DNA of 37,028 nucleotides from Gemmatimonadaceae bacterium (GTDB lineage Bacteria; Gemmatimonadota; Gemmatimonadetes; Gemmatimonadales; Gemmatimonadaceae): contig JBBDYC010000001.1 of NCBI GenBank assembly GCA_040901985.1, forward strand, positions 146,201-183,228. Direction: 5' to 3'. The stretch's first letter is position 1; each line of letters opens with the position of its first letter. The notes under the pieces were generated by a model. It did no database searches and had not been told where the DNA came from. It saw only the letters and a program-made list of their open reading frames with translations. Position numbers and translations under genes: made by a program. Shown piece by piece: positions 22,485 through 37,028 of this stretch.

Positions 22485-23795
22485 TCAGGGAATCGTGCGG
22501 GCGAGCCAGGCCCGTGCGGCGTCGAGCGCCGCATCGCGACCGTCCAGCAGGTCACGGCGCGTGAGCGGAGTGACCTCGTCCGGCACCACGCCGCGTCCCT
22601 CGACGCGGCGACCGCCGGCATCCACGTGGTCAGCGATCGGGTGCATCAGGACATCGCCGTTCGGCAACCGCACCATCGCCGCCGGCAACGCCTCGCCGGC
22701 GCTGGTCTCCCCGAAGATACGGGCGCGGCCGAGCGCCTGCATCCCCGCCGCGAAGAACTCCGACGTGCTGGCCGAGAACGGGTCAATGAGAATCGCAATC
22801 GGGCCGGTGAAGACGTTTACGCGCTCGCCGGACGGGTTCACCAGCCGCGGGTTGGCGCGCAAGTTGAGCGTGGCGCCGCGGCCGTACATCACGCCGAGGT
22901 TGACCGCCGAGTCGGAGAAATGGCCGGCCACGCCGGCGAGCATCCCAACGACGCCGCCGGGATTCCCGCGCAGGTCAATGATCAGCGCCGGGGCCTCGCG
23001 GAGCGCGAAGAGCTGTCGGTCCAGCGTCGGGGCGATGACCGGGAACCAGGCCGAAATGGTGATCCGCGGCACGAGGATCGCGCGGCGCGCCGACACCACG
23101 CGGACGGAATCGGCGTGCGAGCGCACGACGAGGGGAGGCAGGTTCCCGAACCGCGTGGACTGGCCGGCGAGGGCCGTGCGGACCACGGCATAGCTCCGCG
23201 CGCGTCCGCGCCGATCGCGGACGGTGAGGCGCGCCGTGTCGCCGGTGGGGCCGCTCAGGCGGGCGTTGGCGAGCGAGGCGAGGAGAAGCGCCGACTTGCG
23301 CGGATTGTCGGGGAAGGCGCGCCCCAGCCGGTCCCGCAGCGAATCCACGGGCACGGTGTCCACGTGGGTAAGGGTACTGCCGGCGCGGATGCCGGCGCGC
23401 GCGCCGGGGCTCCCCGGGGCCACCCGCCAGACCACGGCGGTGTCGCCGATCATCCGAATCTCGATTCCGGTGGTGCCGGGTGGCCCGCCAGACGTCGGCG
23501 CATCGGGCCGCGGCACCGCATCGCCGGGAATGAGTGCGAAGTGCGACTGCCTTGGCACGGCAATCAGCCGGCGAATGGCGGCGCGCACGGCCGCATCCCG
23601 CGCCGTATCGCCCAGTGCGAGGCGCAGCGAGTCATAGGTGGAGCGCCAGGCGCCTTTCACCAGTGCCGTGTCGTAGTAACTGCGCCCGATGGACGCCCAC
23701 GCCGAGTCGAGGCTGGCGATGGGCGGCGGCGCGTCCTGCGCCGGGACCATCCCGCCGTAGAGAGCGAGCGCGAGGATCGCTACGGGCATTCGCAT
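22485..23795 (-). CDS. S41 family (C-terminal processing/tail-specific) peptidase with PDZ domain
   Basis: PDZ segment (GIEIR...VAPGSPGARAGI), IIDLRGNPGG, SASTSE (catalytic Ser), GETSAG, EGRGVVPD. Confidence 0.92.
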   Translation of the reverse strand: MRMPVAILALALYGGMVPAQDAPPPIASLDSAWASIGRSYYDTALVKGAWRSTYDSLRLALGDTARDAAVRAAIRRLIAVPRQSHFALIPGDAVPRPDAPTSGGPPGTTGIEIRMIGDTAVVWRVAPGSPGARAGIRAGSTLTHVDTVPVDSLRDRLGRAFPDNPRKSALLLASLANARLSGPTGDTARLTVRDRRGRARSYAVVRTALAGQSTRFGNLPPLVVRSHADSVRVVSARRAILVPRITISAWFPVIAPTLDRQLFALREAPALIIDLRGNPGGVVGMLAGVAGHFSDSAVNLGVMYGRGATLNLRANPRLVNPSGERVNVFTGPIAILIDPFSASTSEFFAAGMQALGRARIFGETSAGEALPAAMVRLPNGDVLMHPIADHVDAGGRRVEGRGVVPDEVTPLTRRDLLDGRDAALDAARAWLARTIP

Positions 23796-23893
23796 TGACG
23801 ATTGTAGTCCGCGGCGCGCGTCCGCGCCAAGCCCGGCCGCCTCGGCGCGCCAGTTCTGTTCCGAAGTGTGCGTCCGGTCGTCTATTATTCACT

Positions 23894-25072
23894 GTGACCG
23901 CGACCCAGATCACTCCTGCCGAGGCCCGTCGGATCGTCCCCGAGCTCGCGGCCACGCGAAACCCGAACGTCTGGGTCTACCGATTCGAGGAGCCGACCCG
24001 TGGCTGGGTCCTCTCGGTCGCCACCCACGCGCCCCCGGGATCGGGCAAGCTCTCCCTCGGTGGTTTCCGGATCGCGCCGGTCGAGCGCACCGCTTCACCT
24101 GGGTTCACGACCGACCGCGAGGCAATCGCGCTGGCCACGGGGATGGAAGAGAAGGTGCACTGGTCGCGGGTGATCGGCGCCGGCGGCCCGTTGGCGATGC
24201 GCGACATCAACCGGATCGTCGGCGGCAAGTGCGTCCTTGCGCCGTCGGCCGACGCGCGGGTGGGGCAGCCCCACGATGCCGAGCTGCTCGACTTCGCCAT
24301 CGCCGCGTTCCACGAGATCGAGTCCACCGCCGGCATCCACCTGACCACCGGCCAGGACCTCGGGCACGGCCTGATGCACGACGGCCGCACGTCGTCGCTG
24401 GCGTATCTCAATGCCCGCTACAAGGGGAGCGTCGTCGCCGACACGTCCATTCCGACGGCGGAGGGAAACTTCCACCTGCTCCACGGGATGATGCGCGCAC
24501 ACGGCCTGCCAATCGAGCGCTCGACGGTGGGGTTGATCGGCTGTGGCAACATCGGGATGCATATCATCCGGCGGCTGCGCGAGCACGCGAGCGGTGTGCG
24601 TCTGCTCGCCTGCGAGACGCGGGCCGACCGACGGGCGGAGCTGGAGGCGATGGGGGTCCGCACCTGGGCCGCCGAGGCGAAGGGGGGGTTCCTCGCGCAG
24701 CCGATGGACGCGCTGGTCGTGAACGCCGCCGGCGGCACACTCGACCGCGCCGCGGTGGACGCCTGCGTGGCGAACGCGGCGCTGCGGGTCATCTGCGGGA
24801 GCGAGAATCTCGCGATGCCCGACGCGTCTGACGCGCTCGTCCTGCGCGACGCGAAGAAGGTCTACGCCCCGGCCGAATTCGGCGGGATGATGGGCTACCT
24901 GACCGCCGTCGAGGAGTATCTCTCGGCGCTCGAGGGCGTGCCGTTCGACGTCACGACGCTGCTCGAGGCGTCGAAGCGACTGGAGACGGCCGGGCACGAG
25001 ACCACGGCGCGAATCCTTGCCGCCGCCGGCCGCGAGACGTTCGAAGAGGCGGTGACGGCGCTCTACGCCTGA
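23894..25072 (+). CDS. Divergent Glu/Leu/Phe/Val amino-acid dehydrogenase family protein
   Basis: LGGFR, GMEEK, GGKCV, TGQDLG, Rossmann GCGNIG and ICGSEN occur in the order seen in LeuDH/PheDH; GTG start at 23894. Confidence 0.75.
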   Translation: MTATQITPAEARRIVPELAATRNPNVWVYRFEEPTRGWVLSVATHAPPGSGKLSLGGFRIAPVERTASPGFTTDREAIALATGMEEKVHWSRVIGAGGPLAMRDINRIVGGKCVLAPSADARVGQPHDAELLDFAIAAFHEIESTAGIHLTTGQDLGHGLMHDGRTSSLAYLNARYKGSVVADTSIPTAEGNFHLLHGMMRAHGLPIERSTVGLIGCGNIGMHIIRRLREHASGVRLLACETRADRRAELEAMGVRTWAAEAKGGFLAQPMDALVVNAAGGTLDRAAVDACVANAALRVICGSENLAMPDASDALVLRDAKKVYAPAEFGGMMGYLTAVEEYLSALEGVPFDVTTLLEASKRLETAGHETTARILAAAGRETFEEAVTALYA

Positions 25073-25080
25073 GGCCCCGC

Positions 25081-25869
25081 TCAGCGCGCGCGGAACGCCG
25101 CCAGCGCGTCGCGGGTGAAGTCGGAGAGTACCATCCGTCCGCTCATCGCCGCGCGATCGGCCATCAGCGCGTCCCACCCCTCGGTGCCGCGCCAGAAGAC
25201 GCGCTTGAGCTCGGCCATCGCCTCGGGGTGGGTCGCCGCGAGCCGCGTGGCGTGCGCGGCGACGGTCGCGTCGAGCGCCGACGCGTCGGGACAGACCTGC
25301 CCGTACAGCCCGTGCCGCTCGCACCAGGCGGCGTCGTGCCAGTCGGCGTGGACGGCGAGATGCATGAACGGCGCCCGGCCGAGCTTGTGCTCAATCGCCA
25401 CGCCCACCACGAACGGGCCGAGCCCCACCTGCAGCTCGCTGAGTTTGACGCTCGCCTCGGGGACGGCGCAGGAGTAGTCGCCCGCGGCAATGATGCCGAG
25501 CGCGCCGCCGGCGGCGCGGCCCTGGACCCGCACGAGCACGAACTTCGGCGCGCGGATCATTGCCAGGATCACCCGCGAGAATCCGAGGAAGAATTCCTTG
25601 CCGGCCGCCGCGTCAGCGACGGCGCTGAACTCGTCGAACGACGCGCCGGCGCAGAAGGTGCCGTTGCCGCCGCTTCGCAGGACGATGACGCGCGCGGCGG
25701 GGTCGTTGCCGAGCGCGGTCACGGCCGACGCCAGTTCGTTGAGGAGCTTGGCGGGAAGTGCGTTGCCCTTGGGGTGGGAGAACGCGACCGTGGCGATGCC
25801 GTCGGCGATCGAGGTCCGGACCTCGCCGTCGGGGACCGGCGCTGCGGCGGGGGCGGATTTCTTGCTCAT
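25081..25869 (-). CDS. Enoyl-CoA hydratase/isomerase (crotonase) family protein, methylglutaconyl-CoA hydratase-like
   Basis: FCAGASF oxyanion motif, VQGRAAGGALG, LSELQVGLGP; only one of the two crotonase Glu residues is present. Confidence 0.88.
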   Translation of the reverse strand: MSKKSAPAAAPVPDGEVRTSIADGIATVAFSHPKGNALPAKLLNELASAVTALGNDPAARVIVLRSGGNGTFCAGASFDEFSAVADAAAGKEFFLGFSRVILAMIRAPKFVLVRVQGRAAGGALGIIAAGDYSCAVPEASVKLSELQVGLGPFVVGVAIEHKLGRAPFMHLAVHADWHDAAWCERHGLYGQVCPDASALDATVAAHATRLAATHPEAMAELKRVFWRGTEGWDALMADRAAMSGRMVLSDFTRDALAAFRAR

Positions 25870-25899
25870 GGCCCCAAAGATATCGTATAGATTCCAGCT
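25870..25899. promoter_or_regulatory. 30-bp divergent intergenic region with back-to-back -10-like hexamers (putative leaderless promoters)
   Basis: TAGATT (25888-25893) 6 nt before the paaA ATG; TATCTT on the minus strand (25882-25877) 7 nt before the crotonase ATG; AT-rich; no clear SD for paaA. Confidence 0.55.
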
Positions 25900-26871
25900 A
25901 TGGACCAGAGTCTTTTACCAGCCGCCCCCCAGGACGACCCGGCGCTCGTCGCGGGCTTTGAGGCCCGGATCGCGGCCGGCGAGAGCATCGAGCCGAAGGA
26001 CTGGATGCCGGACCGGTACCGGAAGCAACTCACCCGGATGATGGCGCAGCACGCGCACTCCGAGATCGTGGGCATGCTGCCGGAAGGGAACTGGATCACC
26101 CGCGCGCCGTCGCTCCGCCGCAAGTTGTCGCTGATTGCCAAGGTGCAGGACGAGGCGGGGCACGGACTCTACATCTACTGCGGCACCGAGACACTCGGCG
26201 TGGACCGCCACGAGTTGGTCGCGCAGCTGCTCGACGGCACGGCGAAGTACTCGAGCATCTTCAATTATCCGACGCTGAGCTGGGCCGATATGGGCGTCAT
26301 CGGCTGGTTTGTGGATGGCGCGGCGATCGTCAACCAGACGGTGCTCGCCAAGGCCTCGTACGGCCCCTACGCGCGCGCGATGGTGCGGATCTGCAAGGAA
26401 GAGAACTTCCACAAGCGCCAGGGCTACGAGATCTGCGCCACCCTGGCCAGCGGGACGCCGGCGCAGCGCGCGATGCTGCAGGACGCCGTGAACCGCTTCT
26501 GGTGGCCGTCCCTGATGATGTTCGGGCCGAGCGACACCGACTCGCCGAATTCGGCCGAGCTGCTCAAGTGGCGCGTCAAGCGAAAGACGAACGATGAGCT
26601 ACGGCAGCGATTCGTGAATCTCACCGTGCCGCAGGCGCAGGCGATCGGCGTGTTGCTGCCGGACCCAGACCTCACGTACGACGCCGCGACGAAGAACTGG
26701 GAGTTCGGCGCGATTGACTGGGACGAGTTCTGGCAGGTGGTCAAGGGCAATGGACCGTGCAACGCCGAGCGGCTGGCGGCGCGGAACAAGGCACACGCGG
26801 ACGGCGCCTGGGTGCGGGAGGCGGCGCTGGCCTACGCGGCCAAGCATCGGCGGACGACGGAGGCCGCGTGA
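25900..26871 (+). CDS. paaA: 1,2-phenylacetyl-CoA epoxidase catalytic subunit A
   Basis: [54 protein letters not shown]. Confidence 0.97.
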
Positions 26872-27155
26872 GCGAGGCGTCGTGGCCGCTGTGGGAAGTC
26901 TTCACGCAGGGGAGCGAGGGCGCGCCGTTCGAGCACGCCGGGTCGCTCCACGCCACCGATGCCGAGCAGGCGCTGCAGAACGCTCGCGACGTGTACGCGC
27001 GGCGTGGCGAGGCGGTGAACCTCTGGGTGGTGCCGAGCGCGGCGATCACGGCGTCGGCGCCGAGCGACGCCGGGCCCTTCTTCGATCCGGGAAACGAAAA
27101 GGCGTACCGGCACCCGCAGTTCTACAAGGTGCCGCGCGGCGTACGCGTCTTCTGA
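26868..27155 (+). CDS. paaB: 1,2-phenylacetyl-CoA epoxidase subunit B
   Basis: [43 protein letters not shown] start overlaps the paaA stop. Confidence 0.95.
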
Positions 27156-27997
27156 TGCCCGAGCTCGAAGGGGACGCCGGCGGGGTCGGTGCGGGGGAGG
27201 CGACGTCGGGCGTGGCGCCGGTCGCCGGACCGCGGAACGCGCCGGTGGGGGAGCCGCTTGTCGAGTTCCTCCTCCGACTTGGCGATGACCGCCTCGTGCT
27301 CGGACACCGGCTCTCGGAATGGACCGGCCACGGGCCGATTCTCGAGGAGGACATCGCCACCGCCAACGTGGCGCTCGACCTGATCGGCCAGGCCACGCTG
27401 CTGCTCAAGCTCGCCGGCGCCGCGGAGGGGCAGGGACGGGACGAGGACGCGCTCGCCTACTTTCGCGATGGCGTGGAGTATCGGAACTGCCTGCTCGTCG
27501 AGCAGCCCAACGGCGATTTCGGCGACACGATGGTGCGGCAGCTCCTGTTCGACACGTACAGTGTCCTGCTTTGGGAGGCCCTCGCCAAGTGCGGCCATGC
27601 CGAGCTCGCGGCGATCGCGGCGAAGGCGCTGAAGGAGGGGAAGTACCACCTCCGCCACTCGAGCGAGTGGGTCGTCCGGCTCGGCGACGGCACCGCGGAG
27701 AGCCACGCGCGCGTGCAGGGGTCGCTCGATCGGCTCTGGCGCTACACCGGCGAGCTCTTTGACCGCGACGAGGTGGACGACCGCGTGGCGGCCCACGGGA
27801 TCGGGGTGGATACGGCGGGCATCGAGCGGCGGTGGGAGGCGATGGTGCGCGACGTGCTGGCGCGCGCGACGCTCGAGCGCCCCGCCGATGGCCCGATGCA
27901 GCGCGGCGGCCGGCGGGGGCGGCACTCCGAGCACCTCGGCCACCTGCTGGCGACGATGCAGAGTGTCGCGCGGGCGCATCCCGGCGCGAGCTGGTAG
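27155..27997 (+). CDS. paaC: 1,2-phenylacetyl-CoA epoxidase subunit C
   Basis: LRLGDDRLVLGHRLSEWTGHGPILEEDIA, LVEQPNGDFG, HSEHLGHLL, HPGASW. Confidence 0.95.
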   Translation: MPELEGDAGGVGAGEATSGVAPVAGPRNAPVGEPLVEFLLRLGDDRLVLGHRLSEWTGHGPILEEDIATANVALDLIGQATLLLKLAGAAEGQGRDEDALAYFRDGVEYRNCLLVEQPNGDFGDTMVRQLLFDTYSVLLWEALAKCGHAELAAIAAKALKEGKYHLRHSSEWVVRLGDGTAESHARVQGSLDRLWRYTGELFDRDEVDDRVAAHGIGVDTAGIERRWEAMVRDVLARATLERPADGPMQRGGRRGRHSEHLGHLLATMQSVARAHPGASW

Positions 27998-28003
27998 GGG
28001 ACC

Positions 28004-28495
28004 GTGCTCACCCGCGCGCAGGCCCTGGAAGTTCTCGGCACCGTGCCCGACCCCGAAGTGCCGGCGGTCAGCGTGGTCGAACTCGGGATCGTGCGCGATG
28101 TGGAGGTCGCCGCTGACGGGGCGGCGACGGTGACGATCACGCCGACCTATTCCGGGTGTCCGGCGATGTTCGAGATCGAGAAGGACGTGCGCGCGGCACT
28201 GCTGGGCGCCGGGGCGGCCTCGGTGGACGTGCGGACGTTGCTGTCGCCCGCCTGGACGACCGACTGGATCGGCGCCGAGGCCCGCGAGAAGCTGCGCCAG
28301 TACGGGATTGCCCCGCCGGGACGCGCCCAAGAGGGCGGCCTCGTCACGCTCACGCGGCGGCACGCGCCGGTGCCCTGCCCGTTCTGTGGGTCGGGCGACA
28401 CGCAGCTCAAGAGCGAGTTCGGGTCCACGGCGTGCAAGGCAATCCACGTCTGCAACAACTGTCGGCAGCCGTTCGACGAGTTCAAGGCGATTTAA
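28004..28495 (+). CDS. paaD: 1,2-phenylacetyl-CoA epoxidase subunit D (SufT/DUF59 plus Cys-rich tail)
   Basis: VPDPEVP, TPTYSGCPAM, LSPAWTTDW, CPFCGS, FGSTACKA, C..CRQPFDEFK. Confidence 0.95.
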   Translation: MLTRAQALEVLGTVPDPEVPAVSVVELGIVRDVEVAADGAATVTITPTYSGCPAMFEIEKDVRAALLGAGAASVDVRTLLSPAWTTDWIGAEAREKLRQYGIAPPGRAQEGGLVTLTRRHAPVPCPFCGSGDTQLKSEFGSTACKAIHVCNNCRQPFDEFKAI

Positions 28496-28531
28496 CGACA
28501 GGCGAGAGCCCTGCACGCGGCGTCCCGGCGG

Positions 28532-30622
28532 CTATGCGCAGAGGAGTGCCGCGATCTCCGCCACGATCTCCTCCACGCCGGGGAGGACTGCCTCGAGAAG
28601 GTCGGGGTGGTAGGGCATCGGGATGTCGCGCGGGGCCAGGCGCCGCACCGGGGCGTCGAGGTGCCAGAACGCCTCCTGCGCCACGGTCGCCGCGATCTCG
28701 GCGCCGAACCCGGCGGTGAGATTGTCCTCGTGGACAATCAAACAGCGGCCGGTCTTTGTCACTGAGTCAAGCACGGCGGCACGATCCCACGGCGCAATCG
28801 TGCGGAGGTCGAGCAGCGTCGCGTCGGCGCCGGCGCGCTCGACCGCCTCGGCGCACCGATGCACCATCGCGCCCCAGGTCACGAGCGTGAGCGCCCGGCC
28901 CTCGCGCAGCAAGTTGGCGCGGCCAAACGGGAGCACATAGTCGTCCCCCGGATAATGCGCGCTGCCGTCGCCGGTCATCAGCAGCGACCGGTGCTCAAAG
29001 AAGATCGTCGGGTTCGGGCTCCGCATCGCCGCGCGGAGGAGGCCGACGGCGTCGGCGGCATTCGACGGCATCACCACCTGCCAGCCGTAGGCGTGGGCAA
29101 AGCGGACCTCGTCGCTCAGGCTGTGCCAGGGGTCGCCGACATCCTTGCCGAACCCGCCCGGCATCCGCACCACGATCGGCGCCGCAAAGCGGTTGGCGGT
29201 GCGCCAGCGGAGCGTACCGATGTTGTTGAGCTGCTCGGTGGCGGGGTCGGCGTACTTCCGGAACTGGATCTCGGCCACCGGCATCAACCCGCTGACCGCG
29301 AGGCCCACCGCGCGGCCGATGATCCCCTCCTCGGAGAGACTCGTGTCGAACACCCGGTGCGCGCCGAACTGTTTCTGCAATCCCTCGGTGACGAGATGCA
29401 CACCGCCCTTCCGTCCGACATCCTCGCCGAAGACGACGACCTTCGGATTCACCGTCAGCTCGTGGCGCAGCGTCCGCTTGATCGCCTCGGCCACGCGGAG
29501 CAGGTCACCGCCGCCCTTCGGCCGGTCGGTGGAGCGGGACGCCGCGCGCTCGGCGCGCGACAGGCCGCCGAACGCCTCGGGGGCACCGGGAGCGTCGTTG
29601 GCGTAGACGTATTCGGCAATCCGCGCCGGGTCGGGCTTCTTGCGGGCGCGGGCGGCGGCGAGCGCGCGGTCCACGTCGCGCGCGACCTCCGTCTCGATCT
29701 CGCTCCAGGCGGTGGCGCCCAGCACCTTCGGGACGAGGAACCTGTGGAGGCGCGGCAGGGGGTCGCGCGCCTGGTCGGCGGCGATCTCCTTGTCGGTCCG
29801 GTAGCCCTTCTGGTTGTCGGGGCCGGAGTGGCTGGAGAGGCGCGGCACGGCGAGGCGGACAAGGGCTGGGCCGTGGCCGGCCCGAACGTGCTCGACCGAC
29901 TCGGTGAGCAGCTGCGCCGAACGCTCGGGGTCGGTCCCGTCGCCGTCGCGGACGAAGAGATCGCCGAACGCGGCGAGATTCCTCGCGATGTTCCCGCCGG
30001 GCGTCTGCATCTCGCCCCGTACCGAGATGCCGAGGTCGTTATCCTCGATGTAGAAGAGCATCGGGAGCCTGAGCGTGGTGGCCATCGTGAGCGCCGACCA
30101 GAACCCGTTCGTGGCCACGGACGCCTCGCCGCCGAGCGCCACGCCGATTGCGCCGTTGAAGGCGCTGTCCTTGAGGATGTCGCGATGGTACGTGATGGCC
30201 TGGGCCCAGCCGGCGGTCGGCGTGTACTGCGAGCCGACGTCACCGGACATCGGCAGGACGACCGGGCCGTCGCGGTTGGGGAGATTGCAGACGACCCCGA
30301 TGTCGCGGCCGTCGGAGAATCCGCCGGCGCGCCCGAGCGGTGAGCCGAGCGCGTCCTCGAGGGTGAGGCCAAGGGCGAGCAGGAGCGGCCGGTTCCGGTA
30401 GTACGCCCCCGCGGCATCGCGCTTGCCGGTCAGCAGCGTCCCGAGGATGACCTGTGCCACGTCGTGCCCGCGCGCCGAGAACTGGTAGAGGACGACGTGA
30501 TCCTTCGGTACCGTCGCGCGATTGCGGTTGGTGGACTCCTCGATTTCATCGAGGGCGCGCGAGGCGAGGACGTGGTAGGCGACGCGTCGCCAGTCAATCG
30601 CCTTCGGTGGCTTGGGCGGCAT
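28532..30622 (-). CDS. Fused E1 alpha/beta 2-oxoacid dehydrogenase (ThDP-dependent)
   Basis: Alpha part: SARGH, YYR, GGEAS...EDN ThDP motif, RLSSHSGPD. Beta part: GEDVG..GGV, FDTSLSE, EIQF..Y, WHS, DLRTIAPWD, VHED. Confidence 0.92.
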   Translation of the reverse strand: MPPKPPKAIDWRRVAYHVLASRALDEIEESTNRNRATVPKDHVVLYQFSARGHDVAQVILGTLLTGKRDAAGAYYRNRPLLLALGLTLEDALGSPLGRAGGFSDGRDIGVVCNLPNRDGPVVLPMSGDVGSQYTPTAGWAQAITYHRDILKDSAFNGAIGVALGGEASVATNGFWSALTMATTLRLPMLFYIEDNDLGISVRGEMQTPGGNIARNLAAFGDLFVRDGDGTDPERSAQLLTESVEHVRAGHGPALVRLAVPRLSSHSGPDNQKGYRTDKEIAADQARDPLPRLHRFLVPKVLGATAWSEIETEVARDVDRALAAARARKKPDPARIAEYVYANDAPGAPEAFGGLSRAERAASRSTDRPKGGGDLLRVAEAIKRTLRHELTVNPKVVVFGEDVGRKGGVHLVTEGLQKQFGAHRVFDTSLSEEGIIGRAVGLAVSGLMPVAEIQFRKYADPATEQLNNIGTLRWRTANRFAAPIVVRMPGGFGKDVGDPWHSLSDEVRFAHAYGWQVVMPSNAADAVGLLRAAMRSPNPTIFFEHRSLLMTGDGSAHYPGDDYVLPFGRANLLREGRALTLVTWGAMVHRCAEAVERAGADATLLDLRTIAPWDRAAVLDSVTKTGRCLIVHEDNLTAGFGAEIAATVAQEAFWHLDAPVRRLAPRDIPMPYHPDLLEAVLPGVEEIVAEIAALLCA

Positions 30623-30723
30623 GGGGGAAATCTGTTTGGAGGGCGGGGAACCGCAACTACGGCGGCAGCGGCGTGCACGCCGAGCCCTCGCCGCACGACT
30701 CGCCGGTGAGGTAGATTCCCCGC

Positions 30724-31515
30724 ATGTCGTCCCCGACGATCCTCACGGAGTGTTCCGACGGCGTCCTGGGCATCACGCTCAATCGTCCCGACGTCCTCAA
30801 CAGCTTCCATAGCGGGATGGCGCAGGAGATGCAGCAGGCGCTGGCACGCGCGGGTTCGGACGACGCGGTGCGCGCGGTGTTGATCACCGGCGCCGGCCGC
30901 GGGTTCTGCGCCGGCCAGGACCTCCAGGAGGCGCTGCCCGCCGGGGACGGGCCGATTCCCGACATCGGTGAGATCGTCAAGGCGAGCTACAACCCGATCA
31001 TCCGCGCCATTCGAGCGCTGGAGAAACCGGTGATCTGCGCGGTGAACGGCGTGGCCGCCGGCGCCGGCGCCAACCTCGCCTTTGCCTGCGACCTCACGAT
31101 TGCCGCCGAGGAGGCCACGTTCGTCGAGAGTTTCGCCAAGCTTGGCCTCATCCCCGACACGAGCGGCACCTTCTTCGTGCCCCGCCTGATTGGGCCGCAG
31201 CGGGCAACGGGGATGTTCTTCCTCGCCGGGAAAGTCAGCGCCGCGCGGGCCAAGGAGTGGGGATTGATCTGGGACGTGGTGCCGCTTGCCGAGTTGATGG
31301 GGACGGCGCGTGCGCTGGCGGTCTCGCTCGCCGGCCAGGCGACCCGGGGATTCGGCCTGACCAAGCGCGCGATGAACGCCTCGTGGGCCAACGACCTCAC
31401 GGCGCAGCTCGACGTCGAGGCGCAGGCGATGCACGAGGCGGGGCGAACGGCGGATTACGCAGAAGGCGTCCGCGCCTTTCTCGAGAAGCGAACGCCCGTC
31501 TACCGGGGCGCCTGA
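30724..31515 (+). CDS. paaG: 2-(1,2-epoxy-1,2-dihydrophenyl)acetyl-CoA isomerase
   Basis: LNRPDVLNSF, GRGFCAGQDL, YNPII, VNGVAAGAGANLA, GLIPD (catalytic Asp), DYAEGVRAF; paa context. Confidence 0.9.
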   Translation: MSSPTILTECSDGVLGITLNRPDVLNSFHSGMAQEMQQALARAGSDDAVRAVLITGAGRGFCAGQDLQEALPAGDGPIPDIGEIVKASYNPIIRAIRALEKPVICAVNGVAAGAGANLAFACDLTIAAEEATFVESFAKLGLIPDTSGTFFVPRLIGPQRATGMFFLAGKVSAARAKEWGLIWDVVPLAELMGTARALAVSLAGQATRGFGLTKRAMNASWANDLTAQLDVEAQAMHEAGRTADYAEGVRAFLEKRTPVYRGA

Positions 31516-31517
31516 GC

Positions 31518-32732
31518 GTGACTGGCGGCGGTCCCCTCGGCAGGGAGGCGGTGATCGGCGTCGTCGGCGCCGGCGCGATGGGCGCCGGCATCGCGCAGGT
31601 CGCGGCGATGCAGGGGCATCGGGTGGTGCTCGCCGACGCGTCGGGTGCCGCCATCGGGCGCGCCACCGACGGCCATCGGCAGGCGATGGCGCGCGAGGTG
31701 CAGCGGAATCGCCTGACGCGGGCCGACGCCGATGCCGTGCTCGCGCGGATCACGGCCGTCGGCAGCGGCGTCGGCGGCGTCGGCGGCGCCGAGCTCGCGG
31801 CCTTTGCGCCGTGCCGGTTCGTGATCGAGGCCGTGGTCGAGGAGCTGACGGTCAAGCAGGAGCTCTTTCGCGCACTTGAGCGCGTGGTGATGCCGGACGC
31901 GATTCTCGCGACGAACACGTCGTCGCTCTCGGTGGCCGCGATTGCCGGCGCCTGCGCCCGCCCGGAGCGCGTCGTCGGCGTCCACTTCTTCAATCCGGCG
32001 CCGGTGATGCCGTTGGTGGAGATCATCCCGGCGATCGCGACGGCCGATGCCGTGACCGCCGCCGCGCGCTCACTCGTGGACACGTGGGGCAAGGTCACCG
32101 TCGTCGCCTCCGATACGCCTGGCTTCATCGTCAACCGGATCGCCCGGCCATACTACGGCGAGGCGCTACGGATCCTCGAGGAGGGGATCGCCGACTGCGC
32201 GACGATTGACTGGGCGATGCGTGAGCTCGGCGGATTCAGGATGGGGCCGTTCGAACTGATGGACTTCATTGGCAACGACGTCAACTATGCGGTCACGCGG
32301 TCGGTGTTCGAGGGGATGTTTTTCGACCCGCGCTATCGGCCCGCGCTGACGCAGCGGCGGCTCGTCGAGTCGGGCCGGCTCGGCAAGAAGTCCGGGCGCG
32401 GCCATTACGATTATCGCGACGGCGCCACGGTGCCGACGCCGGCGACCGATGCCGCGCTGGGGCGCGCGATCGTGGATCGGATCGTCGCGATGCTGATCAA
32501 CGAGGCGGTGGACGCGGTGCAGATGCGCGTGGCCTCGCCGGCGGACATCGAGGTCGCGATGACGAAGGGCGTCAACTATCCGCGCGGCCTGCTTGCCTGG
32601 GGCGACGCGCTCGGCGCCGGCGCGGTGCTGGCGACGCTCGAGGCGCTGCAGCAGGAGTACGGCGAGGACCGGTATCGTCCGAGTCCGCTCCTCCGCCGGA
32701 TCGCCGCGCGCGGTGGGAGACTGCTCGCGTGA
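31518..32732 (+). CDS. paaH: 3-hydroxyacyl-CoA (3-hydroxyadipyl-CoA) dehydrogenase
   Basis: [48 protein letters not shown], second C-terminal domain GVNYPRG...YRPSP. Confidence 0.9.
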
Positions 32733-33163
32733 CCGACGCCGACGCCAAGGCCCGCGCGGTCGTCGAGCGGATGATGGCCACCGACGCGTTCTCCCGCTGG
32801 CTGGGAGTCGAGGTGCTGGAGGTCGGCGTGAAGCGGGCGACGATCCGGATGACCGTGCGGCCGGAGATGGTGAACGGGTTCGGCACCGCGCACGGCGGAA
32901 TCGTCTACGCCCTGTCCGACAGCGCGATTGCCTTCTGCTGCAACTCCAACGGCGAGATCTCGGTGGCGCTCGACTGCTCGTGCAGCTATCCGGCGGCGGT
33001 GCGTCCAGGCGACGTGCTCACCGCGGTGGCCATCGAGGAGTCGAGCACGCGCAAGGTCGGATTCGCGGCCGTGACCACCCGCAATCAGGACGGCGTGATC
33101 GTCGGCCACTTCCGCGGCACCGTGTACCGCACCGGCAAGCCGCTCTTTCCGGGGACACCGTGA
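32729..33163 (+). CDS. paaI: Hotdog-fold acyl-CoA thioesterase
   Basis: [19 protein letters not shown]...LSDSA, FRGTVYR. Confidence 0.9.
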
Positions 33164-34389
33164 CCGCCCCCGGCAAGCTGACGGCCGCTTTCCTCGTGGA
33201 CGGCGTGCGCACGCCAATCGGCAGCCTCGGGGGCGCGCTCGGCGCCGTCCGCACCGACGACCTCGCCGCGCACGTGATCCGCGCGCTCGTCGCGCGCCAC
33301 GCCGCGCTCGACCCCGCGCGCATTGCCGACGTCGTGCTGGGCTGTGCGAACCAGGCGGGCGAGGACAATCGCAACGTCGCCCGGATGGCGGCGTTGTTGG
33401 CCGGACTGCCGGTCACGGTGCCGGGCGAGACGGTCAACCGCCTTTGCGCGTCGGGGCTGAGCGCGGTGGCGAACGCGGCGCGTGCGATCAAGGCGGGCGA
33501 GGGCGACCTGTACGTGGCCGGCGGCGTGGAGTCAATGTCGCGCGCGCCGTACGTGATGAACAAGAGCGCGCAGCCGTTCGGCCGCGATATGCAGCTCTAC
33601 GACACCACGCTCGGCTGGCGCTTCGTGAATCCGGCGATGCAGGCCGCGCACGGCACCGACTCGATGGGCGAGACGGCGGAGAACGTCGCCGAGCAGTACG
33701 GGGTGACCCGCGCCGACCAGGATGCGTTTGCGCTACGGTCGCAGCAGCGCGCGGCGGCGGCGCGGAGCGGCGGACGGCACGCCGAGGAGATCGTGGCGGT
33801 CGAGGTGCCGCAGCGGAAGGGCGCGGCGGTCCGCGTCGCCGACGACGAGTTCCTCCGCCCCGACACCACGCTGGCGACCCTCGCCAAGCTCAAGCCGGCG
33901 TTCCGCCACGACGGGAAGGGGAGCGTCACGGCGGGGAACAGTTCGGGGCTCAACGACGGCGCGGCGGCGCTGCTGCTGGCGTCGGAGCGCGCGGCGAAGG
34001 ACCTCGGGCTCACGCCGGCGGCGCGCGTCGTCGCGAGCGCGGCGGCGGGCGTGGCGCCGCGCCTGATGGGCATGGGCCCGGTGCCGGCCACGCGGGCGGT
34101 GCTGGCGCTCGCCGGGCTCACGCTCGAGGAGATGGACGTGATCGAGCTCAACGAGGCCTTCGCCGCACAAGGTCTCGCCTGCCTCCGCGAGCTCGGCATC
34201 CCCGACAACGACGCGCGCGTGAATCCGAACGGCGGTGCGATCGCGCTCGGCCACCCGCTTGGAATGAGCGGAGCACGGCTCGCGCTGACGGCGCTGCGCG
34301 AGTTGCAGCGCCGCAAGGGGCGTTACGCCCTCTGCACGATGTGCATCGGCGTCGGCCAGGGGTTCGCGCTCCTCCTCGAGCGTGTCTGA
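33160..34389 (+). CDS. paaJ: 3-oxoadipyl-CoA/3-oxo-5,6-dehydrosuberyl-CoA thiolase (PaaJ/PcaF)
   Basis: [40 protein letters not shown]. Confidence 0.93.
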
Positions 34390-34399
34390 GGGTGGCGCA

Positions 34400-34996
34400 A
34401 TGATCTATGCCTTCGACGGCTTCGTCCCGGTGGTGCACGAGAGCGCCTTCGTCCACCCGCTGGCGACGGTGACCGGGAACGTGACGATCGGCCGCGACGT
34501 GTATATCGGGCCCGGCGCAGCGGTCCGCGGCGACTGGGGCGGAATCGTGATCGAGGACGGCTGCAACGTCCAGGAGAATTGCACCATTCATATGTTTCCC
34601 GGCGTGACCGTCGTCCTCGAGGCCGGTGCGCATCTCGGCCACGGCGCGATTGTCCACGGTGCGCGGATCGGCGCCAACGCACTGATCGGGATGAACGCAG
34701 TGGTGATGGACAACGCGGTGGTCGGGAGTGGGAGCATCGTCGGCGCGCTCTGCTTCGTGCCGACCGAGATGCAGATTCCGCCGCGCAGCGTGGTCGTCGG
34801 CAACCCGGCCAAGATCGTGAAGGAAGTCACCGACGAGATGCTCGCCTGGAAATCGGACGGCACGGCGCTCTACCAACAGCTCCCGGCGGCAATGCGCGCC
34901 ACCTGGCGCGAGGTGGAACCGCTGCGCGAGGCGCCGGCTGACCGGCCGGCCCAGTCCAACGCCCTCAAGACGTGGAAGGAGACGAAGGCACGATGA
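34400..34996 (+). CDS. paaY: Hexapeptide-repeat gamma-carbonic-anhydrase-like protein
   Basis: PVVHESAFVHP, RGDWG, NVQENCTIH, GHGAIVHG; paa context. Confidence 0.88.
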   Translation: MIYAFDGFVPVVHESAFVHPLATVTGNVTIGRDVYIGPGAAVRGDWGGIVIEDGCNVQENCTIHMFPGVTVVLEAGAHLGHGAIVHGARIGANALIGMNAVVMDNAVVGSGSIVGALCFVPTEMQIPPRSVVVGNPAKIVKEVTDEMLAWKSDGTALYQQLPAAMRATWREVEPLREAPADRPAQSNALKTWKETKAR

Positions 34997-37028
34997 TGCT
35001 CGGGAACTACGCGCTCGGCGAATGGGTCGAGGGAACGGGAAAGGCCGCCGAGCTGTTTCACGCGGTGACCGGCGCGAAGGTCGCCGAGGCGTCGAGCGGC
35101 GGGCTCGACTTCAAGGCGATGGCCGCCTACGCGCGGAGCGTCGGCGGCCCCAAGTTGCGGGCGCTCACCTTCCACCAACGCGCGGCGCTCCTCAAGGCGC
35201 TGGCCAAGCACCTGCTGGAGCGGAAGGACGCCTTCTACGCCGTCTCGGCAGCGACCGGCGCGACCAAGCAAGACTCGTGGGTGGACATCGAGGGCGGGAT
35301 CGGCACGCTCTTCGCGTACTCGAGCCGTGGCCGGCGCGAGTTTCCCAACGAGACCTTCCACGTCGAGGGCCCGGTTGAGCCATTGTCGAAGGGCGGCACC
35401 TTCGTCGGTCGCCACATCGCGGTGCCGTTGGAGGGTGTCGCGATCCACATCAACGCCTTCAACTTCCCCTGCTGGGGGATGCTCGAGAAGCTGGCGCCGG
35501 CGTTGTTGGCCGGCGTGCCGTGCATCGTGAAGCCGGCCACCGCGACGAGCTTCCTGACCGAGGCGATGTTCCGGGAGATGGTCGCCGCCGAGATCCTCCC
35601 CGAGGGAGCCATCCAACTCATCTGCGGCAGCGCCGGCGACCTGCTCGACCACGTGACCGAGCAGGACGCGGTCGCCTTCACCGGCTCCGCCACGACCGGG
35701 CGGATGCTCAAGGAGGGCAAGGCGATTGTCGCGCACTCGGTGCGCTTCAACATGGAGGCCGATTCGCTCAATTGTTCGATCCTCGGGCCCGATGCGGCGC
35801 CGGGCACGGAGGAATTCGACCTCTTCGTCAAGGAGGTCGTGCGGGAGATGACGACGAAGGCCGGCCAGAAGTGCACCGCAATCCGGCGCACGATCGTCCC
35901 CGCGGGGATGGAGGAGGACGTCATCAAGGCGCTCCGCGCACGACTGGAGAAGACCGTCGTCGGGGACCCGGCGGTCGAGGGCGTCCGGATGGGGCCGCTG
36001 GCGAGCCGCGCGCAGGTGCGCGACGTTGGGGACGCGGCCGATCGCATCAAGCAGTCGGCCGAGCTGGTCTTCGGCGCCGCCGACTTCCCGGTGGTGGGCG
36101 CCGACCGCGAGAAAGGCGCGTTCTTCGGCCCGCGGTTGATGCATTGCGCCGACCCGTTCGGCCGCACCGAGCCACACGACATCGAGGCCTTCGGGCCGGT
36201 GAACACGGTGATGGCCTACCAGTCGCTCGACGACGCGATCGAACTGGCGCGGCGCGGCCGCGGCTCGCTCTGCGGGTCGCTCGTCACCGCCGACCCCGCC
36301 GTTGCGCGAAAGATCGTGGTCGGCGTCGCGCCGTATCACGGCCGCCTCCTCGTGCTCGACCGTTCGAGCGCCAAGGAGAGCACGGGCCACGGCTCCCCGC
36401 TGCCGAATCTCGTGCACGGCGGGCCCGGACGCGCCGGCGGCGGCGAGGAGCTCGGCGGCGCGCGCGGGGTGCTGCACTACATGCAGCGGACCGCGGTGCA
36501 GGGCAGCCCAACGATGATCACCGCCATCACCCGCGAGTGGTCCGCCGGGGCGGCGCAACGGTCGGACGCGATCCACCCGTTCCGGAAGACTTTCGACGAA
36601 CTCGAGATCGGCGACACGCTGCTCACGGACCGGCGGACGATCACACTCGACGACATCACACGCTTCGCCGAGTTGAGCGGCGACCGCTTCTACGCGCATA
36701 TGAACGACGAGGAGGCGCGGTCGAACGGGATCTTCGAGGGTCGGGTGGCACACGGCTACTTCATCGTCTCGGCGGCGGCCGGCCTGTTCGTGGAGCCGGC
36801 GCTGGGGCCGGTCCTCGCCAACTACGGGCTCGAGAAGCTGCGGTTCACCAAGCCGGTCTATCCGGGCGACGCGATCCAGGTGCGGCTGACGGTCAAGCAG
36901 AAGACCGCGAAGGACACCCCCGAGTCGGGGATCCCGCAGGGCGTGGTGGAGTGGGACGTGGACGTGCGCAACCAGCACGACGAGTCGGTGGCGCTCTACT
37001 CGATCCTCACGCTGGTGCGGCGCGCGTA
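34993..37028 (+). CDS. paaZ: Bifunctional oxepin-CoA hydrolase / aldehyde dehydrogenase (probable stop codon cut by window edge)
   Basis: Not in the ORF track; manual reading gives MMLGNYALGEW..., HINAFNFPCWGMLEK, FTGS, MEADSLN, GQKCTAIRR, EAFGP, HGSPLP, GRAGGGEELGG, and a MaoC domain (SGDRFYAH, AHGYF, NYGLEKLRF) ending LTLVRRA followed by TA at the edge. Confidence 0.95.
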   Translation, partial: MMLGNYALGEWVEGTGKAAELFHAVTGAKVAEASSGGLDFKAMAAYARSVGGPKLRALTFHQRAALLKALAKHLLERKDAFYAVSAATGATKQDSWVDIEGGIGTLFAYSSRGRREFPNETFHVEGPVEPLSKGGTFVGRHIAVPLEGVAIHINAFNFPCWGMLEKLAPALLAGVPCIVKPATATSFLTEAMFREMVAAEILPEGAIQLICGSAGDLLDHVTEQDAVAFTGSATTGRMLKEGKAIVAHSVRFNMEADSLNCSILGPDAAPGTEEFDLFVKEVVREMTTKAGQKCTAIRRTIVPAGMEEDVIKALRARLEKTVVGDPAVEGVRMGPLASRAQVRDVGDAADRIKQSAELVFGAADFPVVGADREKGAFFGPRLMHCADPFGRTEPHDIEAFGPVNTVMAYQSLDDAIELARRGRGSLCGSLVTADPAVARKIVVGVAPYHGRLLVLDRSSAKESTGHGSPLPNLVHGGPGRAGGGEELGGARGVLHYMQRTAVQGSPTMITAITREWSAGAAQRSDAIHPFRKTFDELEIGDTLLTDRRTITLDDITRFAELSGDRFYAHMNDEEARSNGIFEGRVAHGYFIVSAAAGLFVEPALGPVLANYGLEKLRFTKPVYPGDAIQVRLTVKQKTAKDTPESGIPQGVVEWDVDVRNQHDESVALYSILTLVRRA

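Follow-up and report, generated by a model that had tools for sequence, protein, structure and literature searches.

How does phenylacetyl-CoA reach a paa pathway in a genome where no phenylacetate-CoA ligase can be found? Among the main routes by which bacteria handle aromatic carbon is the paa pathway. Its presence is usually read from PaaK in genome surveys; together with an upstream phenylacetaldehyde dehydrogenase, PaaK constitutes the entry in E. coli and Pseudomonas. The window analysed here, a stretch of 37,028 nucleotides from a Gemmatimonadaceae genome, carries between positions 23894 and 37028 the paaABCD and paaGHIJYZ genes, as recognised by NCBIfam and Pfam models, with a gene for a fused E1 alpha-beta protein in between. 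A preliminary description of this DNA had proposed that the locus degrades phenylalanine through a phenylpyruvate dehydrogenase. The computational checks that it had suggested all turn out favourably and support this reading at the level of sequence, and we consider it probable that the locus converts phenylalanine via phenylpyruvate to phenylacetyl-CoA, by means of a dedicated 2-oxoacid dehydrogenase complex that would feed the Paa pathway.

The locus and the search for other entry routes

The features of the locus are collected in Table 1. The four epoxidase subunits PaaA, B, C and D all exceed their NCBIfam equivalog cut-offs, and PaaZ covers positions 3-664 of the 664 of its model, the window ending with the contig within the last codons of paaZ. 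For the PaaH-like and PaaY-like genes, PaaH and PaaY are the best hits, though below the equivalog cut-offs. The paaB gene starts with GTG at 26868, preceded by GGAGG, and the enoyl-CoA hydratase gene is transcribed divergently from paaA. No PaaE reductase is detected by the TIGR02160 profile in the window or in the whole genome, and only one of the 151 sampled Gemmatimonadota genomes has a PaaE above the cut-off of this profile. The crotonase gene, which adjoins PaaA in most relatives, probably fills the PaaF role. The E1 gene lies between paaD and paaG and is transcribed in the direction opposite to both paa operons. A search for RNA runs containing this DNA gave no match.

Table 1. Genes of the paa locus (positions in the window) and the evidence for their assignment.
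Feature	Position	Strand	Evidence
Divergent amino-acid dehydrogenase, ELFV fold, predicted Phe -> phenylpyruvate	23894..25072	+	392 aa; AlphaFold model, Foldseek, hhalign
Crotonase-family enoyl-CoA hydratase	25081..25869	-	ECH_1 95 bits; no equivalog above cut-off
PaaA, epoxidase catalytic subunit	25900..26871	+	TIGR02156 506 bits, cut-off 280
PaaB	26868..27155	+	TIGR02157 111 bits, cut-off 85
PaaC	27155..27997	+	TIGR02158 307 bits, cut-off 133; start inferred
PaaD	28004..28495	+	TIGR02159 197 bits, cut-off 108
Fused E1 alpha-beta, paa-linked clade, predicted phenylpyruvate-decarboxylating	28532..30622	-	E1_dh + Transket_pyr + Transketolase_C
PaaG isomerase	30724..31515	+	TIGR02280 345.1 bits, cut-off 345.15 (at cut-off)
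PaaH-like 3-hydroxyacyl-CoA dehydrogenase	31518..32732	+	NF006124 517 bits (cut-off 508); TIGR02279 480 bits, below cut-off 669
PaaI-like 4HBT thioesterase	32729..33163	+	PF03061 E 1.5e-10; position kept in relatives
PaaJ/PcaF 3-oxoadipyl-CoA thiolase	33160..34389	+	TIGR02430 644 bits, cut-off 597
PaaY-like hexapeptide protein	34382..34996	+	TIGR02287 232 bits, below cut-off 320
PaaZ, bifunctional oxepin-CoA hydrolase/aldehyde dehydrogenase	34972..37028	+	TIGR02278 1009 bits, cut-off 563

The absence of paaK from the window, pointed out in the preliminary description, is confirmed by the profile search and extends to the whole 2.64-Mb, 99.97%-complete genome, in which the best match to TIGR02155 reaches 29 bits for a cut-off of 646 and a tblastn search with two PaaK-like proteins of the same phylum gives no match at E<=1e-3. 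No PaaK-like gene was found in two genomes of the same genus either. Synteny with these two genomes places the continuation past paaZ at the end of contig C16, where a paaK of 1.3 kb would not obviously fit, and the presence of paaK directly beyond the contig end, just outside the window, is thus unlikely. Neither an indolepyruvate:ferredoxin oxidoreductase (best match 41 bits) nor a homogentisate dioxygenase was found in the genome, so that no further complete route for phenylalanine is visible.

The situation in the phylum is less uniform. Among the 151 sampled genomes, 30 have PaaA, 29 of them being relatives of the genome under study. A PaaK-like gene, defined by a score of at least 500 bits, occurs in seven of these 30 and is missing from the other 23; in two of the seven genomes carrying both (G031 and G124), it shares a locus with E1. 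The entry had been described as ligase-free, which would fit the 23 genomes without a PaaK-like gene, this one included, and is not universal, as seven carry one in addition to E1. Since the two genes coexist in these seven genomes, E1 is not simply a replacement of PaaK.

The E1 component, its partners and the dehydrogenase-like protein

The fused E1 is a protein of 696 residues in which the three domains E1_dh, Transket_pyr and Transketolase_C, all above their Pfam cut-offs, follow one another on a single chain, in agreement with the fused gene that had been described. The thiamine diphosphate/Mg2+ binding motif of such enzymes is of the G-D/E-G ... N-N type, and its form G[DE][GAS]...EDN is kept across 20 paa-type and 13 housekeeping E1 sequences. 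What we call the housekeeping fused E1 is carried by most sampled genomes and is 37-43% identical to the window E1 (40% for the copy of this genome). The paa-type proteins form a clade separate from it, a deep paralogue with an SH-aLRT support of 100, and an assignment of the window E1 as an orthologue of the BCKDH-type fused E1 of the lineage was rejected on these grounds. The alpha part is far more diverged from the housekeeping copy than the beta part (29% versus 45% identity), and its divergence appears again in the comparison with the T. thermophilus E1 alpha (98-100 versus 167 bits).

The distribution of this E1 follows that of the paa genes. It is present in 30 of the 30 PaaA genomes versus one of the 121 others; in the relatives it is 59-79% identical to the window E1, with more than 870 bits in 28 of them and a split copy in G124, and one genome (G097) has a diverged E1 of the paa-type clade, 50% identical, without paa genes. 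A paa gene lies less than 600 bp from E1 in 25 of the 29 relatives and at 0.7-3.2 kb in the other four, so the predicted linkage of this clade to paa genes is borne out in every relative. In G102, G067, G146 and G125, where paaABCD is displaced by 66 kb to 1.6 Mb, E1 stays with paaGHI. In two of the 30 genomes (G113 and G084), a class I/II aminotransferase gene comes after paaABCD, E1 and the crotonase gene.

The E2 and E3 components had been expected to come from elsewhere in the genome, and three E2 genes, one of them an orphan on contig C9 (205332-206651), and two E3 genes above the cut-off are indeed found, all outside the window. In seven of the 30 PaaA genomes, a dedicated full E2 with lipoyl, E3-binding and catalytic domains accompanies E1, either directly downstream (G052, G021, G118, G031, G143 and, in partial form, G109) or 2.4 kb downstream (G124). 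In this genome E1 lacks an E2 of its own, and there is no orthologue of the dedicated E2, the best match being 33-37% identical.

The protein encoded at 23894-25072 had been taken for a Glu/Leu/Phe/Val-type dehydrogenase flanking the paa genes. Its position, fold and aligned residues agree with this view; the Pfam ELFV threshold is the part that fails, since PF00208 reaches 13.5 bits (E-value 0.058) where 23.4 are required and the N-terminal model does not match at all. It receives no NCBIfam name, and its relatives in the database are all labelled 'hypothetical protein'. A PDB profile search detects leucine dehydrogenase, the match being confined to the C-terminal domain (E 3e-6). With its AlphaFold (AF2) model (pLDDT 92.9), the first Foldseek match is the phenylalanine dehydrogenase of Rhodococcus (1bw9/1c1d; E 1e-18, TM 0.68-0.78), aligned over the full length of the protein in 375 columns and followed by leucine, tryptophan and then glutamate dehydrogenases. 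ELFV dehydrogenases use a catalytic Lys, a carboxylate-binding Lys and an Asp. In the hhalign comparison with the canonical Leu/Phe dehydrogenase-type protein of the same genome (probability 79.7%, E 1.5e-5), K87, K112 and D155 align with the K, GGGK and AEDVG positions of the canonical enzyme and the GxGxxG motif is also aligned; the three residues are invariant in 22 relatives.

The gene is restricted to seven of the 151 sampled genomes, belonging to three genera only, and all seven are paa-positive. Among 55 species-genome loci with at least 3 kb downstream of it, PaaA follows in 50, in keeping with the co-localisation that had been anticipated; the other five have no PaaA nearby, two of them (L058 and L075) having unrelated neighbours. 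E1 is present in 22 of the 23 loci that have PaaD and at least 5 kb beyond.

The proposed route and its alternatives

In the route we propose, the dehydrogenase-like enzyme would carry out the NAD(P)+-dependent oxidative deamination of L-phenylalanine to phenylpyruvate. The fused E1 would then use thiamine diphosphate to decarboxylate phenylpyruvate, with reductive acylation of a lipoyl-E2. The E2 would have to be a shared one in this genome, most plausibly the orphan of contig C9; CoA would receive the phenylacetyl group from this E2, and E3 would form NADH in reoxidising the lipoamide. PaaABCD, G, Z, J, the crotonase, H, I and Y would then convert phenylacetyl-CoA to acetyl-CoA and succinyl-CoA. 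Such a route would spare the cell the two ATP equivalents that PaaK consumes and sidestep free phenylacetaldehyde and phenylacetate.

The E1 might instead be a second E1 of branched-chain or general 2-oxoacid dehydrogenase type that owes its place in the paa cluster to regulation or history, phenylacetyl-CoA being supplied by an unrecognised ligase or CoA-transferase that could activate phenylacetate. The JGI label of the E1 relatives ('2-oxoisovalerate dehydrogenase E1 component'), the BCKDH/PDH type of the best solved relatives, the generic AMP-binding enzymes of the genome (the 29-bit match to the PaaK model) and the PaaK-like gene kept in seven of the 30 PaaA genomes all speak for this explanation; we nevertheless regard it as unlikely, because a distinct housekeeping fused E1 is already encoded by most sampled genomes, the paa-type clade is tied to PaaA and follows paaGHI in split clusters, and a PaaK-like gene is missing from 23 of the 30 paa-positive genomes. 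It is quite unlikely that the complex acts on other or broader aromatic 2-oxoacids (4-hydroxyphenylpyruvate, indolepyruvate or phenylglyoxylate), phenylpyruvate being one of them or none, and the dehydrogenase-like enzyme on another amino acid: leucine and tryptophan dehydrogenases do match the model nearly as well as phenylalanine dehydrogenase, all at 15-21% identity, but the sole consistently linked pathway is one that consumes phenylacetyl-CoA, and the lack of a homogentisate dioxygenase in the genome argues against a tyrosine branch.

The 23 paa-positive genomes without a dedicated E2 could also suggest that in such genomes, including this one, E1 alone works as a phenylpyruvate decarboxylase yielding phenylacetaldehyde. 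This we hold to be most improbable, since phenylacetaldehyde would have to be processed by an aldehyde dehydrogenase followed by PaaK, whose gene was not found here, since the orphan E2 is at hand, and since the beta part, which docks E2 in alpha2beta2 E1s, is conserved. A bolder extension of the phenylpyruvate dehydrogenase route would make the Gemmatimonadota paa cluster a self-contained phenylalanine pathway with this complex as its obligatory entry, the two electrons of the decarboxylation being also routed to the PaaABC(D) epoxidase. It is suggested because 29 of the 30 clusters are without PaaE and the E1 gene comes after paaD, in the place of the E. coli paaE; we deem it very unlikely. 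If it were true, one 2-oxoacid would supply the substrate and pay for the epoxidation of its own ring.

If the phenylpyruvate dehydrogenase route is correct, paa clusters devoid of PaaK would be functional loci for phenylalanine degradation rather than incomplete pathways, and phenylalanine catabolism would earn NADH rather than cost ATP. Candidate functions would thereby be given to a paa-linked clade of fused E1 proteins and to a divergent dehydrogenase of ELFV fold annotated as hypothetical, and the enzymes could provide ATP-free arylacetyl-CoA precursors for engineering. A 2026 survey of the pathway anchors on PaaK and, in the portions of its text consulted, makes no mention of phenylpyruvate, 2-oxo acids or Gemmatimonadota (PMC13186573).

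Comparison with known systems

The dehydrogenase-like protein shares with the phenylalanine dehydrogenase of Rhodococcus and with leucine dehydrogenases the full-length two-domain fold, the Lys/Lys/Asp positions and the NAD-binding glycines; unlike them, it carries about 14 inserted residues between its two lysines and is extended by a further N-terminal segment, as aligned by hhalign. The BCKDH E1 enzymes, which are alpha2beta2 (T. thermophilus 1um9, P. putida 1qs0, human 1dtw), are the best solved sequence relatives of the window E1 and, like the housekeeping fused form, have in common with it the three-domain architecture and the TPP-Mg motif, whereas the window E1 belongs to its own deep clade, has a diverged alpha part and is linked to paa genes, the housekeeping form standing alone. 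An anaerobic ferredoxin-dependent entry, through indolepyruvate/phenylpyruvate:ferredoxin oxidoreductase, also leads to phenylacetyl-CoA without a ligase. The PaaK entry, the ferredoxin-dependent entry and the proposed route would converge on the same product, the last differing by its use of lipoamide and NAD+ and by its expected tolerance to oxygen; neither PaaK-like nor oxidoreductase-like genes were found in this genome.

The closest precedent, likened here by its proposed reaction only, would be PglB/PglC of the L-phenylglycine operon of Streptomyces pristinaespiralis, presented in two reports (PMC7089894, PMC10685826) as a 'pyruvate dehydrogenase-like complex' that is proposed to turn phenylpyruvate into phenylacetyl-CoA. 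We found no description of a catabolic counterpart in the literature. According to the same reports, PglB/PglC would have in common with the present locus the proposed reaction and an E1 alpha/beta pair borrowing its E2 and E3. PglB/PglC is, however, biosynthetic, belongs to an antibiotic cluster and consists of two separate subunits, whereas the E1 described here is fused, predicted to be catabolic and embedded in the paa genes.

Gene content of the cluster and of its genome

The gene order between positions 23894 and 37028, derived by GC3 framing and by scanning with Pfam and NCBIfam models, and collected in the table below, places a fused E1 alpha-beta gene between two groups of paa genes, with a dehydrogenase-like gene on their flank. 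The first 23.9 kb of the window bear no relation to paa and encode, among others, a DUF3300 protein, a MacB-type exporter, a PQQ dehydrogenase and S9 and S41 peptidases. A scan of 23500-37028 for promoter and terminator consensus sequences yielded no signal exceeding that of shuffles, and the sequencing-run search returned no RNA run containing the window's DNA and a single DNA run, probably that of the source sample.

Features of the cluster and related loci (C, contigs of this genome unless preceded by a G handle; L, fetched loci)
Feature	Location	Strand	Remarks
Dehydrogenase-like protein, 392 aa	window 23894-25072	+	first in 23894-37028
Crotonase		-	second
paaA-B-C-D		+	third; start and stop codons overlap
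paaD and the slot after it	window 28004-28532
Fused E1 alpha-beta, 696 aa	window 28532-30622	-	fourth
paaG-H-I-J-Y-Z		+	fifth; tight packing
Putative junction with C1	C16, about 59176-60319		end of contig
E2 copy	C4		in row lipA-E1alpha-E1beta-E2
E2 copy	C17		followed by an E3
Orphan E2, 439 aa	C9:205332-206651 (L042:7332-8651)		lipoyl, E3-binding and catalytic domains
Housekeeping fused E1 and hydroxylase gene	C8:158604-161908 (L011:3524-7179)
399-aa protein of G130	L015:15647-16846
E1 locus of G097	L040 (G097:C121:22500-42499)
E1 locus of G124	L041 (G124:C5:14000-33999)

The genome (G000), 99.97% complete, consists of 19 contigs with a total of 2.64 Mb, and the names of homologous proteins assign it to the family Gemmatimonadaceae of the Gemmatimonadota. 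The right end of the window is the end of contig C1, which truncates PaaZ, yet positions 3-664 of the 664 of its model are matched. The genes located 3' of paaZ in two genomes of the same genus map to the end of C16, and this synteny suggests that C1 joins C16 in reverse orientation, so that the unassembled gap would probably be short.

The preliminary description noted no phenylacetate-CoA ligase in the window, and none was found in the whole genome: the best match to the PaaK model (TIGR02155) reaches 29 bits for a cut-off of 646, and the PaaK-like proteins of G031 and G124, two relatives, gave no tblastn match at E<=1e-3. The probable shortness of the gap makes a paaK just past the window unlikely. 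The same-genus genomes G010 (7 contigs) and G090 gave no PaaK-like match either. In our sample of 151 Gemmatimonadota genomes, G000 included (G and a number), a PaaK-like gene (at least 500 bits) was found in only seven of the 30 paa-positive genomes (G084, G147, G146, G125, G091, G124 and G031), four of these genes exceeding the curated cut-off, and the remaining 23 gave no match to the PaaK model above 60 bits.

The epoxidase reductase PaaE (TIGR02160) gave no match in the cluster or elsewhere in this genome; across the 151 genomes it exceeds the cut-off in one, the paa-positive G067 (one of 30), where it adjoins a divergent second-type PaaA. In the window, the slot after paaD, which is the place of paaE in E. 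coli, is filled by the E1 gene. Neither indolepyruvate:ferredoxin oxidoreductase (best 41 bits) nor homogentisate dioxygenase was found in this genome. On C8, a housekeeping fused E1 lies about 700 bp from a gene for a biopterin-type phenylalanine hydroxylase; in G130, the crotonase of the paa cluster is adjoined by a 399-aa protein that weakly matches the N-terminal domain of homogentisate dioxygenase.

Linkage of the two genes to paa in Gemmatimonadota

Queried with the window's E1, the 151 genomes resolve two classes of fused E1. The window type is found in 28 relatives at 59-79% identity and more than 870 bits, and in addition G124 has a split copy and G097 an outlier of 50% identity; the housekeeping type, present in well over 100 genomes and located on C8 in this one, shows 36-43% identity and about 365-430 bits among the matches listed. 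The 30 genomes that encode PaaA are exactly those with the window-type E1. The outlier genome G097 has no PaaA, and its E1 has an asparagine synthase and a glycosyltransferase for neighbours.

Up to 20 kb were fetched around the E1 of the 30 relatives with a window-type or G097-type copy, and the window's proteins were mapped onto them by tblastn. In 25 of the 29 paa-positive relatives, E1 has a paa gene no more than 600 bp away, and in the other four (G055, G093, G139 and G029) the distance is 0.7-3.2 kb, so that the supposed co-localisation of this E1 clade with paa holds in all 29. E1 stays by paaG/H/I even when 66 kb to 1.6 Mb separate it from PaaA (G146, G125, G067 and G102) or when PaaA is on another contig. 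The arrangement itself varies: G113 and G084 carry paaGHIJYZ-paaABCD-E1-crotonase-aminotransferase on one strand, a second family carries paaG-H-I-E1(-E2), also on one strand, and a Pfam scan of the relatives' loci revealed insertions of MatE or MFS transporters, OmpA-like proteins and unrelated genes. The locus of G124 contains a PaaK-like gene, and its E1, PaaI, PaaH and PaaY are each in two pieces in different frames, a sign of decay of the cluster or else of sequencing errors in the assembly.

According to Pfam and tblastn, a complete E2 with lipoyl, E3-binding and catalytic domains directly follows E1 in G052, G021, G118, G031, G143 and G109 (cut by the contig end in the last), and in G124 it follows at a distance of 2.4 kb, which brings the total to seven of the 30 paa-positive genomes. 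No orthologue of this dedicated E2 is present in G000, whose three E2 catalytic domains (see table) are 33-37% identical to it. E2 and E3 would have to come from elsewhere in the genome, as had been anticipated, and both are available: besides the three E2 copies, E3 exceeds the cut-off on C17 and C4. The orphan E2 on C9 is surrounded by small ORFs without family match, with no adjacent E1 or E3, and is a candidate for a partner shared by both fused E1s. The other E1s are an alpha/beta pair on C4 and a 944-aa frame on C17, probably SucA-like to judge by its length.

The dehydrogenase-like gene has a narrower distribution, seven genomes of the 151, from three genera. As proposed beforehand, it too accompanies paa: all seven are paa-positive, and the distance to PaaA is 0.6-2.8 kb in six of them (about 0.6 kb in G000) and 21 kb in the seventh. 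The species-genome collection contains 196 stretches coding for a relative of this protein, and the best 80 of the 196 are all from Gemmatimonadota. PaaA is present in 50 of the 55 loci having at least 3 kb downstream, the five others being L056, L057, L058, L061 and L075, two of which have unrelated neighbour genes; of the 23 loci that include PaaD and extend at least 5 kb past it, 22 contain the E1. The complete arrangement is seen in L073, from a MAG that bears the name Gemmatimonas phototrophica.

Divergence of the two enzymes and predicted fold of the dehydrogenase-like protein

In a quick maximum-likelihood tree of 33 E1 sequences, with all rows kept, the paa type separates from the housekeeping type at 100% SH-aLRT on long branches, and the G097 protein, itself on a long branch, is placed as sister to the paa type. 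For the two paralogues of G000, identity is 29% over the alpha part and 45% over the beta part. Leaving out G097 and a truncated housekeeping row, 43 positions are invariant within each class and differ between classes, and 25 of the 43 belong to the alpha part. Compared with solved structures, both beta parts reach similar scores of about 257 bits (T. thermophilus 1um9_B); the score of the alpha part is 98-100 bits in the paa type, versus 167 in the housekeeping copy. A diverged alpha part and a conserved beta part would fit an altered substrate site and a retained E2-docking part. The TPP-Mg site G[DE][GAS]...EDN is kept in both classes; a broken motif ('GGE' versus 'GDG' in the HMMER pairwise alignment) was considered and rejected, as the family alignment has the acidic residue in register and the pairwise one is offset by one column.

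Among 1.84 billion protein representatives, only three homologues, P0241 (56%), P0243 (47%) and P0244 (45%), are near full length and closer than the housekeeping type. The cluster of P0243 includes a 698-aa Chloroflexota MAG protein named 'pyruvate dehydrogenase' (P0243/P0391), which at 47% identity is nearer to the window's E1 than G000's own housekeeping copy. Many representatives of 1016-1227 aa (P0254, P0284, P0289, P0303 and others) match the whole E1 at their N-terminal end with 32-37% identity and may be E1-E2 fusions.

The 392-aa protein had been described as an ELFV-type dehydrogenase, a designation borne out by fold and active-site alignment and not by Pfam, where ELFV_dehydrog remains under its cut-off (E 0.058, 13.5 bits versus 23.4) and the other matches are weak Rossmann ones; none of the 120 relatives listed carries a functional name. 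In a PDB search with a profile of 22 relatives, leucine dehydrogenases match in the C-terminal domain alone (E 3e-6). AlphaFold gives a confident model (pLDDT 92.9, pTM 0.88), whose top full-length Foldseek matches are three entries of phenylalanine dehydrogenase from Rhodococcus, 1bw9, 1c1d and 1c1x (E about 1e-18, TM 0.68-0.78, 18% identity), followed by leucine and tryptophan dehydrogenases and then by glutamate dehydrogenases. The genome possesses in addition a canonical Leu/Phe-dehydrogenase-type gene on C19 and a glutamate dehydrogenase gene on C6. The alignment of the 392-aa family with the C19 protein by hhalign (probability 79.7%, E 1.5e-5) pairs LGGxR, K87, GGK112, D155 (TTGQDLG versus TAEDVG), GCGNIG and CGSENL/CGGANNQL; the paired residues of the 392-aa protein are invariant across the 22 relatives, and we take the catalytic roles of K87, K112, D155 and the other aligned positions to be those of the ELFV literature. 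By its modelled fold and predicted active site, the protein is thus a divergent, unnamed ELFV subfamily member.

Proposed entry of phenylalanine into the Paa pathway

The best-supported reading combines these two families, the paa-linked fused E1 and the divergent ELFV-fold enzyme, whose functions are predicted. The ELFV-fold enzyme, replaced in G113 and G084 by an aminotransferase, would convert phenylalanine into phenylpyruvate; from this the E1, together with E3 and a lipoyl-E2, would form phenylacetyl-CoA, which would enter the Paa pathway. What is observed is the gene set of the cluster, the lack of any detected PaaK-like gene, the modelled fold of the flanking enzyme, the co-occurrence and adjacency of E1 and paa, and the dedicated E2 of some relatives; the substrates of both enzymes and the use of a shared E2 in G000 are what we infer.

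The rival readings concern the E1 itself, which could be a general or branched-chain enzyme, could act on another aromatic 2-oxoacid, or could serve as a decarboxylase only. Entry of phenylalanine through phenylpyruvate and phenylacetyl-CoA is better supported than any of the three. A role of E1 in the lower paa pathway was rejected because that part of the pathway is not known to have a 2-oxoacid intermediate. The observation of the preliminary description is confirmed, and its interpretation, a ligase-free entry of phenylalanine, gains genomic support.

In the open full-text literature covered by our searches, we found no link of a 2-oxoacid dehydrogenase E1 to paa catabolism, nor any paper that catalogues or assays phenylpyruvate dehydrogenase complexes of a catabolic kind. 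A 2026 paa survey anchors on PaaK, and the passages of it that were found mention neither phenylpyruvate nor Gemmatimonadota (PMC13186573). The finding would change the reading of paa clusters devoid of PaaK. Phenylacetyl-CoA, the product of the proposed route, is also that of the ferredoxin-dependent phenylpyruvate or indolepyruvate oxidoreductases of anaerobes. The reaction itself has a precedent in the phenylglycine operon of S. pristinaespiralis, where PglB/PglC are described as a pyruvate-dehydrogenase-like complex that converts phenylpyruvate into phenylacetyl-CoA (PMC7089894, PMC10685826).
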